64,000 bases of DNA from an uncultured Clostridia bacterium. Its GTDB lineage: Bacteria; Bacillota; Clostridia; Christensenellales; Pumilibacteraceae. Of this stretch, positions 13,475 through 60,016 are shown one piece after another; positions within the stretch are counted from its first letter, which is position 1; each line of letters opens with the position of its first letter. The stretch is taken from the NCBI GenBank assembly GCA_934229275.1, contig CAKQDN010000001.1, forward strand, positions 11,596-75,595. Direction: 5' to 3'. The position numbers and the translations under genes were made by a program. The notes beneath the pieces are model-generated. The model was not told the origin of the DNA. It ran no database searches and was given only the letters and a program-made list of their open reading frames with translations.

Positions 13475-14155
13475 ATGTTTCCCGAGATAATTCGACATTT
13501 ATTAAACGGTTTTATGACGACACTGGCGTTATTTGCGATAACGCTGGTGTTTGCCGTTCCGCTCGGACTGCCGATAACGCTCGCTTCGCGCTGTAAGTTC
13601 AAGCCGCTGCGTTTCGTTATGCGCGCGTTCGTGTGGGTGATCCGCAGCACGCCGCTCATGCTGCAGGTGCTTGCGGTCAGCCTTTTGCCGAAGTACGTTT
13701 TCGGAGCGGCTGTAAAAGACCTTGCCGCCGCGCTCGGAACAAGCGTAAAATCGCTTAATTTCATATTCGTGTGCGTGGCGTTCGTAATCAACTACGCGTG
13801 CTATTTTTCCGAAATTTACCGCGCCGGCATCGATTCCGTGCCGCAGGGTCAGTACGAAGCCGGAAAAGTGCTGGGGCTTAGCCGCTCCAAGACGTTCGGC
13901 AAAGTCGTCCTCATGCAGGTGGTAAAGCGCATAGTTCCGCCCATGGGCAACGAAATAATAACGCTCGTAAAGGACACGTCGCTCGCGCAGATAATCGGCG
14001 TTATAGACCTGTTGAGCGCGGCAAACGAAGCGGTGAACACGTTCATAACTCTGACGCCGCTGGTCTATGCAGCCGTGTTCTATCTCGTTTTCAACGGACT
14101 TTTGACCGTGCTTTTATCGTATGCCGAGAAAAAACTCGGTTATTTCAAGGTGTGA
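13475..14155 (+). CDS. amino-acid ABC transporter permease (His/Glu/Gln/Arg/opine family)
   Basis: 226 aa, 5 TM segments, EAA-like loop region; directly follows the SBP gene. Confidence 0.8.
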   Translation: MFPEIIRHLLNGFMTTLALFAITLVFAVPLGLPITLASRCKFKPLRFVMRAFVWVIRSTPLMLQVLAVSLLPKYVFGAAVKDLAAALGTSVKSLNFIFVCVAFVINYACYFSEIYRAGIDSVPQGQYEAGKVLGLSRSKTFGKVVLMQVVKRIVPPMGNEIITLVKDTSLAQIIGVIDLLSAANEAVNTFITLTPLVYAAVFYLVFNGLLTVLLSYAEKKLGYFKV

Positions 14156-14156
14156 T

Positions 14157-14951
14157 ATGGCGTATCTCGAAGTTAAAAACTTAAATAAATCGTTCGACGG
14201 CACCGCCGTGCTTAAAGACGTCTGTTTTTCCATGGAGCAGGGCGAGGTCATGACCATAATCGGTTCGTCCGGCAGCGGAAAAACGACTGCTCTTCGCTGT
14301 CTCGTCGGCTTGGAAACGCCCGACGGCGGAGAAGCGTTTATCGGCGGCGAACGCATAATCCCGCGTGATAAAAAACGCATAAGCGACGGCGCCGTGGGCA
14401 TGGTTTTCCAGAATTATAATCTGTTTCCGCAGTACAACGTGCTGCAAAACGTCACGCTTGCCATGAACGTGCGCTCAGAAACCGCGTTAAAGGCGCAGAA
14501 AATCGGCTTTTTCGAGCGTAAAAAACGGCTTAAACGGATTAAAAAGCAAAACGCCGAAGCCGCGCTCGGACTGCTGGAAAGAGTGGGGCTGGGCGACAAA
14601 GCAACCGCCTATCCTTGGCAGTTGTCAGGCGGTCAGTGCCAGCGAGTCGCCATTGCGCGTGCGCTTGCTCTTCAGCCGTCGGTATTGTGTTTCGACGAAC
14701 CTACGAGCGCACTCGATCCGCTTTTAACGCAGGAAGTGCTGGGTGTTATCAAGTCGCTTAAAAGCAAGGACATGACCATGATAATAGTCACGCACGAGAT
14801 GAATTTCGCGCGTGCCGTGAGCGATAAGGTGCTGTTCATGTCGGACGGAGTTATTGCCGCCGAGGGAAGTCCCGACTACGTTTTCGGTGACGATGCACCC
14901 GAGCGTGTCAAGGCGTTCATCGCCGGCGCAAAAAGCGACTACGCCGAATAA
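14157..14951 (+). CDS. amino-acid ABC transporter ATP-binding protein
   Basis: Walker A GSSGSGKTT, signature LSGGQCQRVAIARAL, Walker B LCFDEPTSALD. ATG 14157 immediately after the permease stop; the ORF track start at 14121 would overlap the permease. Confidence 0.85.
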   Translation: MAYLEVKNLNKSFDGTAVLKDVCFSMEQGEVMTIIGSSGSGKTTALRCLVGLETPDGGEAFIGGERIIPRDKKRISDGAVGMVFQNYNLFPQYNVLQNVTLAMNVRSETALKAQKIGFFERKKRLKRIKKQNAEAALGLLERVGLGDKATAYPWQLSGGQCQRVAIARALALQPSVLCFDEPTSALDPLLTQEVLGVIKSLKSKDMTMIIVTHEMNFARAVSDKVLFMSDGVIAAEGSPDYVFGDDAPERVKAFIAGAKSDYAE

Positions 14952-15007
14952 CTTACTTTTTTTGGAGAAAAAGTAAGCAAAAAAACTTTTGAGTTAGGAG
15001 AATAATA

Positions 15008-15062
15008 AAACAAGGTTGGTTTTTCTGCTTAAACATTGCAGGTACCGACCTTGTTTTTTATT
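15008..15062 (+). terminator. terminator-like hairpin module (family E) after the ABC ATPase gene
   Basis: AACAAGGTTGG ... CCGACCTTGTT stem followed by TTTTTTATTGTTGTA; a near-identical module sits at 56786-56840 after dnaB. Confidence 0.55.
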
Positions 15063-15143
15063 GTTGTATGGTGGGCGTACTTTAAAGCCTCTCCCTCCGG
15101 GAGAGGTGCGGCGATAGCCGATGGAGAGGGTAATTTAAATTTT

Positions 15144-15173
15144 CGGACAGCCAACGGACGCCTGTCCCTACAA
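15144..15173 (-). repeat. REP element, variant 1 (5'-TTGTAGGGACAGGCGTCCGTTGGCTGTCCG-3' on the minus strand)
   Basis: 30/30 identical to the copy at 56873-56902; GTAG head plus GGACAG/CTGTCC arms. Confidence 0.8.
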
Positions 15174-15740
15174 AGACGCACAAACTTTGGTGCGTTGAAA
15201 TTGACTTCTTTAAAGCCTCCTTTGCTTTGCAAGGGAGGTGGCTTCGAGCATAGCGAGAAGACGGTGGGATTATTATCGGGAGGGGGAACCCCTCCCCTAC
15301 ATAGTAAACCAAACCGAGTGCGATTAAACAAGCGAAATTTACATACCAACCCTCTTCGTCGCGGTAAACCGCGCCACCTCTCCCGAAGGGCGAGGCTTTA
15401 AATGCGGTCAAAGCAGAGGCACCAAACCTTGACAAAATCGCACACCTGTCTTAAAGTTTTTTTGCCTGTTTTTTAAATAAGCAAGGTTTTTAGCCATGCA
15501 TAAGCAGAGGCACCAAACCTTGACAAAATCGCACACCTGTCTTAAAGTTTTTTTGCATACTTTTTTTCAAAAAAAGTATGGTTTCAAAAAAATTAAAAAA
15601 GAGGGGAGAGGTTGTCCTCGTCCCCTGCAATTGGAATTCGGCAAAAAATATTAAATTTCACGGGCGTGCGGTTTGCACGAGCCTGTCGCTTCCGTTACGC
15701 GTACTCGGGAGCGTAAATTTTCTGCTTTTGCGACTGTGAG

Positions 15741-15821
15741 TTATTTGCAGTTCTTGGTTGCTTTACCGGTAGTCTTATTCGTGGTTTTCTTTGCCTTATT
15801 GGCGGTTTTCTTCTCCGACAT
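15741..15821 (-). CDS. candidate 26-aa Lys/Thr-rich small protein (MSEKKTANKAKKTTNKTTGKATKNCK)
   Basis: Consensus SD AAGGAGGT (minus strand, plus coords 15829-15836) 7 nt upstream of ATG; TAA stop. Lies in an otherwise unannotated 1.1-kb gap; a GGGATATCCC palindrome sits just upstream. No homology assignable. Confidence 0.25.
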   Translation of the reverse strand: MSEKKTANKAKKTTNKTTGKATKNCK

Positions 15822-51376: not shown

Positions 51377-51406
51377 GCGGACAGTCGGGGACGCCTGTCC
51401 CTACAG
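51377..51406 (-). repeat. REP element, variant 2 (minus-strand 5'-CTGTAGGGACAGGCGTCCCCGACTGTCCGC-3'), 67 nt upstream of the RAYT gene
   Basis: GTAG head plus GGACAG/CTGTCC arms; 29/30 identical to the 57123-57152 copy. Confidence 0.8.
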
Positions 51407-51472: not shown

Positions 51473-51997
51473 ATGAATGACATAATCGAAAACAGAGTGT
51501 TGTCGCAAAGAGTTCCGACACGTTTACGATACTATGACTACAATAACGCAGGCGCGTATTTTGTAACAATATGCACAATGGGCAAAAAGTGCATATTGTC
51601 GAAGATTGTAGGGACAGGCGTCCTCGACTGTCCGCAACCGGAATTGACCGAATACGGGAAAATCGCCGAAAAATACATTAAATCGATGGGCGAGTTTTAT
51701 AAACATATTTCTATCGACGGATACGTAATAATGCCCAATCACATTCATATCATGCTTGTTATAAAAGAGTGCGAAACAATTAAAAACGACAGTCGCTCGA
51801 ACAGCGCGTATTCGCGATTTGTTTCTACGTTCAAACGTTTTTGTAATAAAGAGTACGGTAGAAACATTTGGCAGGCGCGTTCCAACGACCACATTATTCG
51901 TAACGAGCATGACTACGAAAAACACATGAAGTATATTTACGAGAATCCCTTGAAGTGGACATCCGACGAGATGTATATAAACGAGGTGCAATTGTGA
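51473..51997 (+). CDS. REP-associated tyrosine transposase (RAYT; IS200/IS605-like Y1 HuH transposase family)
   Basis: YFVTICT N-terminal motif, HuH motif MPNHIHIML, C-terminal catalytic-Tyr region NIWQARSNDHIIRNEHDYEKHMKYIYENPLKW closely resembling E. coli YafM-type RAYTs. Surrounded by cognate GTAG-headed REPs. Confidence 0.8.
   Translation: MNDIIENRVLSQRVPTRLRYYDYNNAGAYFVTICTMGKKCILSKIVGTGVLDCPQPELTEYGKIAEKYIKSMGEFYKHISIDGYVIMPNHIHIMLVIKECETIKNDSRSNSAYSRFVSTFKRFCNKEYGRNIWQARSNDHIIRNEHDYEKHMKYIYENPLKWTSDEMYINEVQL
51606..51635 (+). repeat. REP element, variant 2, in-frame inside the RAYT ORF (encodes IVGTGVLDCPQ)
   Basis: 5'-TTGTAGGGACAGGCGTCCTCGACTGTCCGC-3' differs by 1 nt from the intergenic copies at 51377 and 57123 (reverse complement). 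Confidence 0.75.
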
Positions 51998-56687: not shown

Positions 56688-56872
56688 TTATTTTTAAGGC
56701 GCAAATAAGCCGAAAAGAATGTAAAGGTTTTTTTGATTTAAACGATTTATATCTAAAGTAATTGTAAAGAAGCAGTAAACAGCAAAACAAGGTTGGCTTT
56801 TCCGTTTTAACATCGCGGATTGACCAGCCTTGTTTTTTTATTGTTGTAAGGTGAGCACACATTTGACTTCTT

Positions 56873-56902
56873 TTGTAGGGACAGGCGTCCGTTGGCTGTC
56901 CG
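56873..56902 (+). repeat. REP element, variant 1
   Basis: 5'-TTGTAGGGACAGGCGTCCGTTGGCTGTCCG-3'; identical to the reverse complement of 15144-15173. Confidence 0.8.
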
Positions 56903-56908
56903 TTTAAC

Positions 56909-57011
56909 GGGAGGGTGGAGTCCGGGTCGCAATTATAAATTGCTTCCCGCTTTGGCTACGAATAGTCCACCGGACTATTCGCTTAACGCGTCGCGCCCCG
57001 CCCCTACAAAG
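56909..57011 (-). repeat. about 100-nt structured element (GTAGGGG-headed; contains perfect palindrome GAATAGTCC-ACC-GGACTATTC), copy 1
   Basis: About 95% identical to the reverse complement of 59692-59786. Ends (CCCCGCCCCTACAAAGG) resemble REP heads. Confidence 0.75.
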
Positions 57012-57122
57012 GCGCACAAGCCGAGTGCGCTGAATCAGCCGACTTCTTTAAAGCCTCTCACTCCGGGAGAGGTGGCACGGCGCAAGCCGTGACGGAGAGG
57101 GTAATAATAGGCGCGGACAGTC

Positions 57123-57152
57123 GGGGACGCCTGTCCCTACAAATCGGATGAT
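57123..57152 (-). repeat. REP element, variant 2
   Basis: Reverse complement TTGTAGGGACAGGCGTCCCCGACTGTCCGC. Confidence 0.8.
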
Positions 57153-57346
57153 TTCGTTTTGTCCTGTGCGTTTATCCTTATATCGTAGGGGAGGGGTCTC
57201 CCCTCCCGTTTACTTTAAAATCATGACTTCTTTAAAGCCTCTCACTCCGGGAGAGGTGGCACGGCGCAAGCCGTGACGGAGAGGGTAATTGCTTGAAAAA
57301 AATACCGTTCGTACGCCCTCTTTTCACCCACCTCGACCGCAAAAAA

Positions 57347-57402
57347 TCGTCCGAAAATCGTCCGAAAATTGTCCGAAAATCATCCGAAAATCACCCGAAA
57401 AA
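57347..57402 (+). repeat. five tandem 11-bp repeats (NNTCCGAAAAT), iteron-like
   Basis: TCCGAAAAT at 57350, 57361, 57372, 57383 and CCCGAAAAA at 57394: exact 11-bp phasing. Confidence 0.75.
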
Positions 57403-57476: not shown

Positions 57477-57578
57477 TCTACTGAAAGACTAAGCGTAAAC
57501 TGCGGGTAACTAAGCGTAAACTGCGGGTCATCCGCACTTTACGCTTAGTCTTTTTCCTTGATTTTTCAGTAAAAATCG
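57477..57578. repeat. 21-bp direct repeat x2 (ACTAAGCGTAAACTGCGGGT) nested in an inverted repeat (TACTGAAAGACTAAGCGTAAA / TTTACGCTTAGTC...TTTCAGTA)
   Basis: Direct copies at 57488-57508 and 57509-57529; inverted arm at 57538-57575; about 80 nt upstream of the lipoprotein gene. Confidence 0.7.
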
Positions 57579-57655: not shown

Positions 57656-58102
57656 ATGAAAAAAGTAAAAAGTCTGAAAGTTATTGCAGCCGTGCTGTGT
57701 ATGGTTGCCGTGTGCGTCGCTGCTTTGTCGTTCGGCGCGTGTGCAAAAACAAAAGACGACGGTGCTATTGATGCAGGAGTTATACAGCCCGATGATGGAC
57801 GTCCCGATTTTAATAAAATCTACGAAGACCTCGGCTCGCCGTATTGTTGCACCGTCGCAAAAGACGGAAGTTATCTTTCGGTTGATACCAACTGGCTGGA
57901 CAGAGACGATTATTTCGATTCGACCGCTTACAGCATATTATGCCAGGTTGTAGAAAAATTGGGTTTGCCCGAATCTCTGACAGAAGAAATGAATCACACG
58001 AGAGCAATCGACGGCAGGCTGAGTGAAAAGTATACTTATGTAACCGTTTCGTGGTCGTATCATCCGGATAAAGGGCTCGAAGCAACTTTCAAACTTAATT
58101 AA
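57656..58102 (+). CDS. hypothetical lipoprotein
   Basis: Signal peptide plus lipobox (SFGAC); 148 aa; AAGGAGAA RBS. Confidence 0.55.
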   Translation: MKKVKSLKVIAAVLCMVAVCVAALSFGACAKTKDDGAIDAGVIQPDDGRPDFNKIYEDLGSPYCCTVAKDGSYLSVDTNWLDRDDYFDSTAYSILCQVVEKLGLPESLTEEMNHTRAIDGRLSEKYTYVTVSWSYHPDKGLEATFKLN

Positions 58103-59471: not shown

Positions 59472-60016
59472 ATTATTCAGACACACCACCACCCGTTTTA
59501 AGGCACTCTTGCCCGATGGATAAAATCGGATAGGGGTGCCTGTTTTTTTAAAGTGGGACATGGATGGTCGTCGTCGGAGTTGATCGCGTATCGGAGTGGT
59601 TAAATAACCCTCTTCGTCGGCTGCCGCCGCCATCTCTCCCAGTGGGCGAGGCTTTAAAGAGGACGATTTTAAAGCACCAAGGTTTGAGCGACTTTGTAGG
59701 GGAGGGGCGCGACGCGTTAAGCGAATAGTCCGGTGGACTATTCGTAGCCAAAGCGGGAAGCAATTTATAATTGCGACCCGGACTCCCCCCCCTCCCGAAA
59801 ATAATCCCACCGTCTTCTCGCTATGCTCGAAGCCACCTCCCTTGCATAGCAAAGGAGGCTTTAAAGAGGTCGATTATTTTAAAGTAAGCGGATAGAAGGT
59901 AGCGCCCTGTCCCTACAAAAAAAGTCAAAAGTGCGTTCTCCCAACTTCCCCTAACTCAAAAGTTTTTTGCCTACTTTTTTTCAAAAAAGTACGGTGCTTT
60001 TTTACAAAAAAGTAAG
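59472..60016. repeat. BIME-like mosaic cluster 3 (terminator hairpin, inverted family-A hairpins, about 100-nt element copy 2, truncated REP, family-D palindrome)
   Basis: Hairpin plus T-run 59492-59548, family A (inverted) 59600-59665 and 59833-59880, long element 59692-59786, REP half CCTGTCCCTACAA at 59906-59918, family D at 59953-59994. Confidence 0.8.
59692..59786 (+). repeat. about 100-nt structured element, copy 2 (inverted relative to copy 1)
   Basis: 5'-TTGTAGGGGAGGGGCGCGACGCGTTAAGCGAATAGTCCGGTGGACTATTCG...GGACTCCCCCCCCTCCCG-3'. Confidence 0.75.

Follow-up and report, generated by a model that had tools for sequence, protein, structure and literature searches.

The gap downstream of an ABC ATPase gene in the window (as we call the whole stretch of 64,000 nucleotides analysed here) is probably a site where small non-coding repeats have accumulated between two convergent terminators; these repeats would operate at the level of DNA, the REPs among them being spread by a RAYT and the repeats of family A forming triplexes. 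As to family A, we see something short of an even chance that it represents a naturally selected intramolecular DNA triple helix, which obeys a purine-motif code including T opposite C-G, is capped by a hairpin and stands beside a REP system with REPs embedded in the RAYT gene.

The proposed course of events is as follows. The RAYT would act on single-stranded DNA hairpins formed by the REPs and spread them in this way; such action on single-stranded hairpins is established for the TnpA-REP of E. coli. Family A, when present as single-stranded DNA, would fold as an intrastrand triple helix of class II (purine motif) composed of a 5' pyrimidine arm, a purine arm, a hairpin-capped turn and a reverse-Hoogsteen purine strand. 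Such structures and repeats would be tolerated where their insertion is harmless, and the repeats could, in turn, promote recombination and rearrangement at the cluster sites.

Composition of the repeat cluster

The five motif classes that a preliminary description placed in this gap are all there and are commoner than chance would give: TTTAAAGCCTC occurs 7 times against 1.7 expected, GTAGGGACAGGCGTCC (REP1) 5 times against 0.18, GTAGGGGAGGGG (REP2) 4 times against 0.05, and AAACAAGGTTGG 4 times against 0.21. Mapping by blastn placed each module, as had been claimed, also at 51.3, 56.8-57.3 and 59.5-60.0 kb of the window. The modules recur beyond the window as well, in related genomes: family A in dozens of MAGs, and D, E, REP1 and REP2 (or REPs akin to these two) and an 85-nt insert in L065, L085 and L248. 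Folding with ViennaRNA, which considers Watson-Crick and wobble pairs only, gives a hairpin for each of the modules. A chain of distinct recurring palindromic modules, the density of which that description regarded as striking for Firmicutes, does stand in this Clostridia (Firmicutes) genome. Its extent and density were somewhat overstated: the repeats are dense, but they make up about 80% of 14952-15630, end near 15592 and leave 15301-15345 as unique sequence inside the cluster, where almost none had been reported.

The core of this cluster (cluster 1) contains two families of GTAG-tagged REPs, three copies of family A and the modules D, E and F. Module D (14952-14998, minus strand) is an AT-rich hairpin, CTTACTTTTTTT..AAAAAGTAAG with GCAAAAAAACTTTTGAG, which abuts the TAA stop codon of the ABC ATPase gene; the hairpin is found at the same position in the 97%-identical strain L244, and in clusters 1 and 4 as well as in L065, L244 and L248 it adjoins a stop codon with unchanged relative orientation. 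Next comes module E (15007-15075, plus strand; z = -4.6), a 14-bp stem enclosing a large loop, with a T-run and then ATTGTTGTAWGGTGRGC behind it, and then copy 1 of family A (15078-15134, plus strand), consisting of TTTAAAG, the hairpin P1 (CCTCTCCC/GGGAGAGG), TG, the hairpin P2 and the purine tail GGAGAGGG (42.1 bits). Further downstream are REP1 (15144-15171, minus strand), module F (15172-15208, plus strand), a variant of family A as copy 2 (15206-15274, plus strand; P1 CCTCCTTTGC/GCAAGGGAGG, tail GGTGGGA; 54.1 bits), REP2 (15277-15300, minus strand) and copy 3 of family A (15346-15405, minus strand; 43.6 bits with the covariance model). Module F, the linker hairpin ACGCAC..GTGCGT that joins REP(-) to A(+), has a weak fold (z = -2.0); it recurs at 57004-57046 and 59661-59700(-), and the composite order REP(-)-F-A(+) was found three times. 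A 121-aa ORF at 15036-15401 is made wholly of repeats, has no Pfam match and was rejected as spurious.

The last part of the mosaic is a direct repeat (15411-15592, plus strand) of two units, 15411-15474 and 15502-15565, which are 95% identical and spaced by 91 nt, the second unit ending in module D(+) at 15536-15580. Tandem Repeats Finder, run on the gap, did not call this 91-nt-spaced repeat as a tandem array.

The 1.1-kb gap had been described as gene-free, which it is not: outside the mosaic it holds a conserved ORF of 26 aa (MSEKKTANKAKKTTNKTTGKATKNCK; 15741-15821, minus strand) with an AAGGAGG ribosome-binding site, whose homologue in the relative L115, located after ppx, reads MSEKKTMNKTAKKTANKSAGKTTKSCKNCK. 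A GC-rich hairpin with a minus-strand T-run at 15594-15630 (minus strand, hairpin 15602-26; z = -4.3), which is not a repeat, is likely the intrinsic terminator of this small ORF; the consensus terminator scan did not call it. Module E, of which a second copy (56785-56853) follows dnaB, is likely the intrinsic terminator of the ABC operon. Both share with rho-independent terminators a GC-containing stem with a subsequent T-run after coding regions, while module E, unlike ordinary terminators of this kind, recurs as a family whose loop sequence (TTTTYCNGYTTAAACAT) is conserved across different loci and species. The mosaic core sits between two convergent terminators, E of the ABC operon and 15594-15630(-) of the small ORF. 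Rfam gave no matches in the window at the gathering score and only chance-level ones at E up to 10, and no tRNA was found by scanning the window.

Architecture and covariation of family A

Our covariance model retrieved 7 copies of family A from the window and 123 from 761 kb, i.e. from the window together with A-bearing genome contigs, mostly of Oscillospiraceae/Clostridia MAGs. This repeat of about 60 nt is spread over gut Clostridia and, apparently, across phyla, its hosts being gut Clostridia and, in addition, MAGs labelled Thermoguttaceae. A pyrimidine arm, a complementary purine arm and a third, purine-rich segment follow each other in this order in each of the 7 copies of the window and throughout the alignment of 123 copies; loop 1 has 3-7 nt, and the second connector, of 14-30 nt, holds the covarying hairpin P2. 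When P2 is closed, the effective turn of family A is made of one T and one base pair. The tail of copy 1 mirrors the 3' arm of its P1 at 8 of 8 positions. An 80-nt stretch covering copy 2 and the beginning of REP2 has 97.5% identity with 59788-59867(-).

Carriage of family A by phages or plasmids was considered and rejected: only one of 2.9 million viral contigs has true copies of A, phages gave one weak match to a fragment, and plasmids gave no match. Family A is also absent from RAYT neighbourhoods (80 loci, 305 kb; one weak match), and therefore nothing ties it to a mobilising enzyme. A search of the literature for its motif sequence or for triplex repeats in Clostridia found nothing relevant.

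P1 and P2 covary, with a score of 0.347 against 0.118 when shuffled, and the tail, which in the parallel register is 92.6% complementary with 106 doubly changed cells, covaries with P1 in this parallel (mirror) register with a score of 0.543 against 0.233 when shuffled; in either case none of 500 shuffles scored as high, although these controls overstate independence, as the copies of family A share descent. Parallel registers that were slid score at most 0.21, and antiparallel registers of the tail give no signal (0.148 against 0.148 when shuffled). An attenuator-like pairing of the tail with the 5' arm of P1 was rejected because no antiparallel register covaries. Position by position, tail and P1 conform to the rules C-G.G, T-A.A or T, and G-C.T, and the triplet code G.GC, A.AT, T.AT or T.CG is obeyed in 775 of 842 cells. 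Changes in the tail follow P1 in one register at four separate positions (1, 3, 5 and 7), the backgrounds of the tracked changes being CCTCTC and GCTCTC, CCCCCC and GCCCCC, and TCTCCC. At mismatched positions of P1, the tail agrees with the purine arm in 25 of 30 cells, against 4 of 30 in which it matches the complement of the pyrimidine arm; this split is partly compositional, since most bases there are G. A small number of ancestral events may account for the G-C.T class; the triple at position 1 is the terminal one, and T.CG counts only as weak among natural triples. The pattern of family A corresponds to the layout of a class II purine-motif intrastrand DNA triplex, in which a hairpin replaces the short second loop.

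It is rather unlikely that family A is, instead, a mere palindrome of two hairpins (a protein site or the end of a MITE), the tail of which resembles P1 due to co-inherited low-complexity words like GGAGG. The arms are nearly mirror-symmetric (CCTCC), so that some resemblance comes free, the subfamilies are lineages, so that covariation can reflect descent, and the triplex of the E. coli repeat TM_ECO was undetected by in vivo DMS footprinting (PMC4666352), all of which would suit such a palindrome. What speaks against it is that positions 1, 3, 5 and 7 all track in one register and in several backgrounds, with no signal in slid or antiparallel registers, and that at mismatched P1 the tail sides with the purine arm in the proportion given above, partly compositional as it is. 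Besides, replication and recombination yield direct or inverted repeats and are not known to produce mirror ones.

Returning to the triplex reading, a role at the level of DNA rather than RNA is indicated by the orientation of family A, which shows no bias relative to flanking genes (18 copies in the same and 18 in the opposite direction), by its location mostly outside ORFs (84 of 123 copies; a greedy call assigns 86% of the loci to ORFs) and by the lack of an Rfam match. RNA-level roles have often been proposed for REP/BIME and for pneumococcal BOX elements, and the modules discussed here might likewise be 3'-UTR terminators, protectors of mRNA against exonucleases or promoter-driven small RNAs; we consider this improbable. 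Indeed, E is a convincing terminator right after two plus-strand genes, the stop codons adjoined by D lie in a constant relative orientation to it, several of the P1 and P2 hairpins have loops resembling UUCG or GNRA, and both units of the direct repeat have one promoter-like site each (TTGACA-17-TAAAGT). However, the number of these sites (2 versus 1.6 in shuffles) is at expectation, and we leave them uninterpreted for this reason, while the missing orientation bias of family A and the missing Rfam matches count against RNA-level modules in general. The earlier suggestion that the hairpins act as terminators or stabilisers fits module E but not the mosaic core, which lies beyond both convergent terminators: REPs, A and F are part of neither transcription unit, since they lie past E on the one side and past the minus-strand terminator on the other. 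In addition, the parallel register of the tail is unusable by ordinary RNA pairing, and according to Holder et al. (2015, PMC4666352) RNA does not form triplexes of the purine motif.

REPs and a RAYT-like gene

REP1, GTAGGGACAGGCGTCC..CTGTCCGC (in cluster 1 GTAGGGACAGGCGTCC..CTGTCCG), and REP2, GTAGGGGAGGGG-N3-CCCCTCCC (in cluster 1 GTAGGGGAGGGG-TTC-CCCCTCCCG), both fold as hairpins and both have the hallmark of REPs, i.e. GTAG at the 5' foot of an imperfect palindrome of 20-40 nt. There are 5 copies of REP1 and 4 of REP2 in the 64 kb, all of them extragenic except one inside a RAYT-like gene. This gene (51473-51997, plus strand) encodes a Y1 (HUH/Tyr) transposase of 174 aa with PNHIH and YIYENP, which displays the features by which RAYTs are recognised: a Y1 protein of the IS200/IS605 type, HUH, the catalytic Tyr and the RAYT motifs. 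The protein matches NCBIfam REP_Tyr_transpos with E = 2.9e-17, at 62.9 bits, which is below the curated cut-off of 80, and Pfam Y1_Tnp weakly (E = 0.098). Its sole significant PDB match is TnpA-REP, 4ER8 (E = 6e-9; the next one, a Cmr2 protein, has E = 0.43), the alignment covering the beta1, HUH and Y-x-x-NP regions, and one source, JGI, labels a homologue as 'REP element-mobilizing transposase RayT'.

An inverted REP1(-) is located upstream of the RAYT-like gene at 51377-51404, and a REP1(+) lies in frame inside it at 51608-51635, where it encodes VGTGVLDCP; inverted cognate REPs are thus found at the gene, as expected of a RAYT, though one REP1 copy is intragenic. An inverted pair of GTAG REPs is present inside the RAYT gene in 52 of 80 metagenomic homologues. 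In 46 of these 52 loci the two intragenic REPs have at most 2 differences in 16 positions, versus an average of 5.8 of 16 for REPs between loci, and in 20 loci the same REP was found outside the RAYT gene too.

By definition, the RAYT of a REPtron binds and cleaves its own REP as single-stranded DNA, and the RAYT-like protein of the window is presumably the mobiliser of the GTAG REPs. In-frame REPs inside a RAYT gene are an unreported gene layout; with its REP pair embedded, the transposase gene might be subject to self-recognition or self-regulation through its own substrate, and the in-frame position makes the control of RAYTs directly testable. In Clostridia RAYTs have been mentioned only in passing and abundant REPs not reported, and for gut Clostridia we found no description of abundant REPs, nor of RAYT/REPIN, in the searchable literature. 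The present data extend the REP-RAYT biology into this group.

Comparison with known repeat systems

REP/BIME-RAYT systems are known from Enterobacteria and Pseudomonas (Nunvar, 2010; Bertels and Rainey, 2011; Ton-Hoang, 2012; Messing, 2012). The window resembles REPtrons (Di Nocera, 2013, PMC3733652) in the GTAG 5' of an imperfect palindrome, in the extragenic and clustered location of the REPs, in the presence of several REP families per genome and in the HUH/Tyr RAYT homologue with adjacent REPs. It differs from them in that classical RAYT genes are only flanked by REPs, while here REPs lie inside the reading frame, and from REP/BIME in that its REPs do not alternate regularly in orientation and its clusters mix REP and non-REP modules. 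The preliminary description had called the cluster BIME-like; ordered recurring palindromic modules, genuine REPs among them, are indeed present, but a BIME in the E. coli sense they are not. In that sense, BIMEs contain two types of REPs that alternate in orientation, are regularly spaced and are joined by defined linker motifs, and they bind IHF, DNA gyrase or DNA polymerase I. In cluster 1, both REP1 and REP2 have the minus-strand orientation at a distance of 129 nt, with F and A between them; as the REPs do not alternate and the commonest unit, family A, is not a REP, the term is fair as an analogy and does not denote membership.

BoxC of E. coli forms a family separate from BIMEs. According to Hoyne et al. 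(2000), as cited in Holder et al. (2015, PMC4666352), the BoxC/PIT/TM_ECO elements of E. coli are class II intrastrand triplex repeats, and TM_ECO was found to fold as a class II triplex by CD and NMR (Holder et al., 2015, PMC4666352). Family A is like them in the succession of a pyrimidine arm, a loop, a purine arm, a turn and a mirroring purine strand, as well as in being G/C-rich, about 40-60 nt long, intergenic, without strand bias and located at rearranged loci. Heterotypic inverted pairs are formed in both cases (17 of 22 tail-to-tail pairs in family A; always type A with type B in TM_ECO). However, the second loop of TM_ECO has 3 nt, whereas in family A its place is taken by TG, the covarying P2 (8-26 nt) and (A)C; TM_ECO loops are N3-6 and N3, while the second connector of family A falls outside the 1-6 nt loops searched by ITxF, which makes it a variant that such loop-limited searches could not find. 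The conserved TTTAAAG leader and the G-C.T class of triples are also features of family A, unlike TM_ECO, and the hosts differ, being gut Clostridia and Thermoguttaceae-labelled MAGs in the case of family A and Proteobacteria in the case of BoxC/TM_ECO. The TM_ECO consensus, CCCTCNCCC N3-6 GGGNGAGGG N3 GGGNGAGGG, has no match in the window. Judged by its sequence, family A is not a member of TM_ECO and appears to be only the same kind of structure.

Family A bears on the question of whether DNA triplexes arise in living bacteria and are of consequence there. The fold of BoxC/TM_ECO has been shown only in vitro, and no function has been found for it; family A adds evidence of another kind, namely three-way covariation seen in more than 100 copies from many genomes. 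If the triplex reading is true, it would be the first comparative-genomic (covariation) evidence of a DNA triplex fold maintained in vivo. A triplex repeat of this type would be a variant not described for gut Clostridia.

Gram-positive bacteria are known to possess short modular extragenic hairpin repeats in variable combinations, such as BOX (boxA-boxB-boxC), RUP and SPRITE, and the repeats of the window share these general traits. BOX and RUP are regarded as MITE-like, RUP having a link to transposases of the IS630 type. Compared by description, the pneumococcal BOX, RUP and SPRITE stand apart from the repeats of the window, having neither a GTAG tag nor a purine mirror tail, and no sequence relation was seen.

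Other clusters and genome rearrangements

Cluster 3 (56785-57289) is composed of E, REP1(+), a long REP2 variant with the 85-nt insert (-), F, A, REP1(-), REP2(+) and A, and cluster 4 (59604-60016) of A(-), F(-), the long REP2 variant(+), a variant of A(-) and D(+), the last with a double hairpin that abuts the arsR stop codon. Synteny breaks coincide with three of the four clusters. In the relatives L245, L247 and L248 the ATPase gene is followed by a plain terminator; there is no cluster after dnaB in L039, nor after the small ORF in L115.

One might also regard 14952-15580 as a single composite mobile element between inverted D modules, or the 45-kb block 14952-60016 as one unit between inverted D and A'+REP2, but we find this very hard to believe. 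The D arms 14958-14989 and 15544-15575 are indeed 91% complementary, the ATPase stop codon is adjoined by D(-) and that of arsR by D(+), and in three relatives the distance between ATPase and arsR genes is only 2 to more than 4.5 kb. However, the inverted D modules flank 14952-15580 without the other marks of a MITE: neither the window nor any locus contains a second copy of the 630-bp unit, there is no visible target-site duplication, and the modules occur elsewhere independently and in other orders. As to the 45-kb block, it holds the core genes dnaB, ppx and pepF, and rearrangement at the repeats is therefore likelier than an element.

We give equally little credence to an assembly artefact, i.e. 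a contig misjoined via shared repeats, which would make the content of the clusters and the 45-kb block chimeric. Short-read assemblies of close strains do break here (the L244 contig ends 27 nt past the ATPase stop codon), a 97%-identical ppx lies on a contig of 1,085 bp, and clusters 1 and 4 have repeats in common. Nevertheless, the repeats in common are short, with lengths of 50-170 bp and identities of 83-97%, similar mosaics were assembled independently in L065, L085 and L248, and L244, too, has D at the ATPase stop codon. These mosaics interrupt the short-read assemblies of abundant gut taxa and serve as markers of synteny breakpoints, and therefore affect both MAG quality and the inference of genome rearrangements.

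Among the relatives of the window, UMGS1795 has a nucleotide identity of 81%, and a ppx of Candidatus Neoclostridium sp. stands at 74%.

Composition and layout of the cluster

The sequence downstream of the ABC ATPase gene (14121-14951, Pfam ABC_tran) is a co-accumulation of GTAG REPs (tagged palindromes) linked to RAYT, the REP-associated HUH/Tyr transposase, of a hairpin-capped BoxC-like triplex motif (family A, a repeat of about 60 nt), and of AT-hairpin and terminator modules. After the ATPase stop codon it reads as the preliminary description had it, and all modules fold as hairpins. The AT-rich hairpin D (14952-14998, minus strand) abuts the stop codon and is followed by the module E (15007-15075), whose hairpin and T-run resemble a terminator. 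The core begins with a family A copy (15078-15134) and continues with REP1 (15144-15171, minus strand), the linker hairpin F (15172-15208), the family A variant A' (15206-15274), REP2 (15277-15300, minus strand), 45 nt of unique sequence and a minus-strand family A copy (15346-15405). Further on lie a direct repeat spaced at 91 nt (15411-15592), with a plus-strand D at the end of its second unit, and a minus-strand hairpin (15602-26, within 15594-15630) followed by a T-run, which looks like the terminator of a small minus-strand ORF (15741-15821; 26 aa, MSEKKTANKAKKTTNKTTGKATKNCK). With E at one end and this hairpin at the other, the core is flanked by two convergent terminators.

The same ORF contradicts the description of the gap as gene-free: apart from substitutions, its sequence is conserved in a relative (L115, 5339-5431), where it also follows ppx (the relative's Ppx is 73% identical). 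Lysine-rich, located downstream of ppx and preceded by a strong ribosome-binding site (AAGGAGG), it looks from its sequence like a real small gene. As to the 121-aa ORF at 15036-15401, it was rejected as a gene, being made of repeats and having no Pfam match. A promoter-like site, TTGACA-17-TAAAGT, is duplicated inside the 91-nt-spaced repeat (15429-15457 and 15520-15548); both copies aim into the convergent minus-strand terminator, and such sites are no more numerous than in shuffled sequences.

The recurrence of the motifs at 51.3, 56.8-57.3 and 59.5-60.0 kb, claimed previously, exceeds the level of dinucleotide-preserving shuffles (TTTAAAGCCTC, 7 observed vs 1.7 expected; GTAGGGACAGGCGTCC, 5 vs 0.18; GTAGGGGAGGGG, 4 vs 0.05; AAACAAGGTTGG, 4 vs 0.21), and blastn of the window against itself agrees, placing every module in these three other gaps as well. 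The composite of a minus-strand REP, F and a plus-strand A occurs in the first cluster and in those at 56.8-57.3 and 59.5-60.0 kb, each time with a different REP, and the A'+REP2 segment of the first cluster is 97.5% identical to its copy in the last one, in inverted orientation. Scans of the window gave no match to Rfam families or tRNAs. To describe the cluster, BIME is a reasonable analogy; in kind, several repeat families have accumulated together here. The assignment of the host to Firmicutes is correct, given the synteny of the window with "uncultured Clostridium sp. UMGS1795" (81% nucleotide identity) and the labels of the ppx and RAYT homologues (Clostridia, Oscillospiraceae or Candidatus Neoclostridium).

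REP palindromes and the RAYT gene

Both REP1 and REP2 carry the GTAG tag, the defining mark of the main REP superfamily (Di Nocera 2013, PMC3733652). The ORF at 51473-51997 (plus strand) matches the NCBIfam family "REP-associated tyrosine transposase" with E = 2.9e-17, a score under the curated cut-off, and the sole significant PDB relative of the RAYT family profile is E. coli TnpA-REP (4ER8), aligned across the beta1, HUH and Y-x-x-NP regions. An inverted copy of REP1 lies 70 nt upstream of this gene, and a second REP1 lies inside it, in frame, coding for the invariant segment VGTGVLDCP.

This in-frame layout is general in the RAYT family concerned. Among 80 metagenomic homologues (31-60% identity), 52 have the HUH strand bracketed by two GTAG palindromes in mutually inverted orientation, both in frame within the gene; the upstream one codes for VG-x-G-x-x-D-x-P and the downstream one for, e.g., NGQSRTPVPT. 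The two palindromes of a gene differ at 0.96 of 16 positions on average (two mismatches or fewer in 46 of the 52 pairs); REPs from different loci differ at 5.8 of 16 and comprise 35 distinct 12-mers. At 20 loci a matching REP was also found outside the gene. The gene of the window retains the first intragenic REP only, the second having been lost. These REPs would be mobilized by RAYT. Published work on RAYTs, as far as searched, mentions those of Clostridia just in passing and associates abundant REPs with groups 2 and 3 alone, of Enterobacteria and Pseudomonas; no description of in-frame REPs within RAYT genes was found in the searchable literature.

In some homologues the REP-coding segments are multiplied in tandem. 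In two REP2 copies (56903-57012, minus strand, and 59696-59795, plus strand) the GTAGGGG(A/C)GGGG and CCCCTCCC arms are separated by about 85 nt of inserted sequence, with two strong internal hairpins, GAATAGTCC..GGACTATTC and GCAATT..AATTGC; this insert is present, 96.6% identical, in another MAG (L085, 1244-1331). Such copies either are long REP variants or have received a nested insertion.

Family A as a putative DNA triplex

Scanning a genome collection with the pattern TTTAAAGCCTC-N9-17-GAGGTG yielded matches in many MAGs of Oscillospiraceae, Lachnospiraceae, Ruminococcus and other Clostridia, and also in contigs labelled Thermoguttaceae. A covariance model built on 46 copies found seven copies in the window, all within three clusters, and 123 in the 761 kb comprising the window and 99 scan loci; searching the other scan loci separately, together with two unrelated loci, added 10 more. 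Both hairpins covary (0.347 vs 0.118 shuffled, a value reached in none of 500 shuffles; slid registers score 0.10 or below).

The covariation is three-way, as each position of the 3' purine tail tracks its counterpart in hairpin 1, in a parallel (mirror) register. Written as 5' arm base - 3' arm base. tail base, position 1 has C-G.G 82, G-C.T 30 and T-A.A 3 times; position 3, T-A.A 102 and C-G.G 15; position 5, C-G.G 94 and T-A.A 11; position 7, T-A.A 49, C-G.G 47 and T-A.T 6. In this register 92.6% of cells are complementary and 106 are doubly changed, the score being 0.543 vs 0.233 shuffled (0/500) and 0.11-0.21 in slid registers, and the changes are seen in several subfamily backgrounds. 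All antiparallel registers of the tail stay at the shuffle level (0.148 vs 0.148). The antiparallel register is the one that an ordinary alternative helix would use. Ascertainment cannot create the tail signal, since the tail lies outside the scan pattern and is unpaired in the model.

In total, 775 of 842 cells fit G.GC, A.AT, T.AT or T.CG. The T.CG triple of the antiparallel purine motif was reportedly described by Beal and Dervan in 1992 and by Dittrich et al. in 1994. T is also the natural base that triplex designers put opposite a C-G inversion in control oligonucleotides (PMC6158708), and an NMR structure of T.CG in the pyrimidine motif is cited in PMC2532714.

From its sequence, family A is predicted to fold as a triplex. 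A class II purine-motif intrastrand triplex consists of a pyrimidine arm, a purine arm and a mirror purine strand, and the E. coli repeat BoxC/PIT/TM_ECO adopts this fold in vitro according to CD and NMR (Holder et al. 2015, PMC4666352). Family A has the same strand order. TM_ECO is always intergenic, without strand bias, often forms inverted pairs of two types, and is associated with rearranged loci (PMC4666352); similarly, 84 of the 123 family A copies lie outside ORFs, although a greedy call assigns 86% of the loci to ORFs, the copies are evenly oriented with respect to flanking genes (18 same, 18 opposite), and among close neighbours (22 tail-to-tail, 10 head-to-head, 7 tandem) 17 of the tail-to-tail pairs combine a C-type with a G-type unit. 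However, family A differs in its second connector, a covarying hairpin of 8-26 nt (beyond the 1-6 nt loops that the ITxF search covers), in its TTTAAAG leader, and in having no match to the TM_ECO consensus. Holder et al. report TM_ECO only from proteobacterial genomes, their main text naming neither Firmicutes nor Clostridia, and its fold went undetected by in vivo DMS footprinting (PMC4666352). Since purine-motif triplexes are stated not to form in RNA (Holder et al. 2015, PMC4666352), and since family A lacks orientation bias and is positioned beyond the terminators, a DNA-level structure is indicated for it. We found no description of this family in the searchable literature.

High-scoring copies, including heterotypic inverted pairs, also lie on long contigs (188 kb, 159 kb; L034, L053) from ruminant guts that are labelled Planctomycetota (Thermoguttaceae MAGs), and others on contigs labelled Gammaproteobacteria and Rickettsia typhi (L058; L072); these reflect either mis-binning or a horizontal spread between phyla. 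True family A copies occur on only one "viral" contig (L117, IMG/VR, 6.2 kb), which has seven of them on one strand within 4.5 kb and is probably a bacterial fragment miscalled as viral.

Association of modules and synteny breaks

Family A and GTAG hairpins tend to lie near each other: a GTAG hairpin is within 90 nt of 29 of the 123 family A copies, vs 7.2 +/- 2.3 at random placement. Their relative orientation is not fixed, and 305 kb of RAYT neighbourhoods gave a single weak family A match, so that the two appear to be independent families gathering in shared permissive gaps. Relatives have D and E too, in similar but not identical orders. D abuts the upstream gene's stop codon, always in one relative orientation, at five independent sites (window 14952, ATPase, and 59995-60016, arsR; L065, 1316; L244, 4796; L248, 7724), which suggests a target preference or a 3' UTR role.

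Some orthologous sites are empty: in three relatives (75-79% protein identity) the ATPase 3' end has a plain unique terminator and no repeats, and L115 has one after its homologue of the 26-aa ORF. A 97%-identical strain (L244) has D at the ATPase stop, its short-read contig stopping 27 nt past that codon. UMGS1795 has no cluster after dnaB, and its synteny with the window ends there. In the relatives L245 and L248 the ATPase gene is 2-3 kb from arsR; in L247 the interval starts alike and reaches GH43 and UDG, the stretch ending before arsR. The arsR 3' end of L248 has its own mosaic of A, REPs including REP1, E and D. By these comparisons at the ATPase, dnaB and arsR ends, three of the four clusters are synteny breakpoints.

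In the window, 45 kb of core genes (ppx, pepF, RAYT, dnaB) separate the ATPase gene from arsR, with junctions exactly at the minus-strand D at 14952 and the plus-strand D at 60016; these inverted D modules abut the two stop codons, and the inverted A'+REP2 copies lie near both block ends. Either the repeats were the site of a rearrangement that separated the two genes, or the assembly is chimeric through them. We infer a causal role of the repeats in rearrangement.

Other repeats downstream of dnaB

Downstream of dnaB and its repeat cluster, an 11-nt unit, AAAATCGTCCG, is repeated in tandem 5.4 times (57343-57401, 91% matches); the array looks like iterons or a protein-binding array. At 57488-57555 a perfect 21-nt direct repeat, ACTAAGCGTAAACTGCGGGTA, occurs twice, and a partial copy in inverted orientation, CTTTACGCTTAGT, comes after it; as the start of a gene, at 57656, lies about 100 nt further downstream, this could be an operator or a leader structure.
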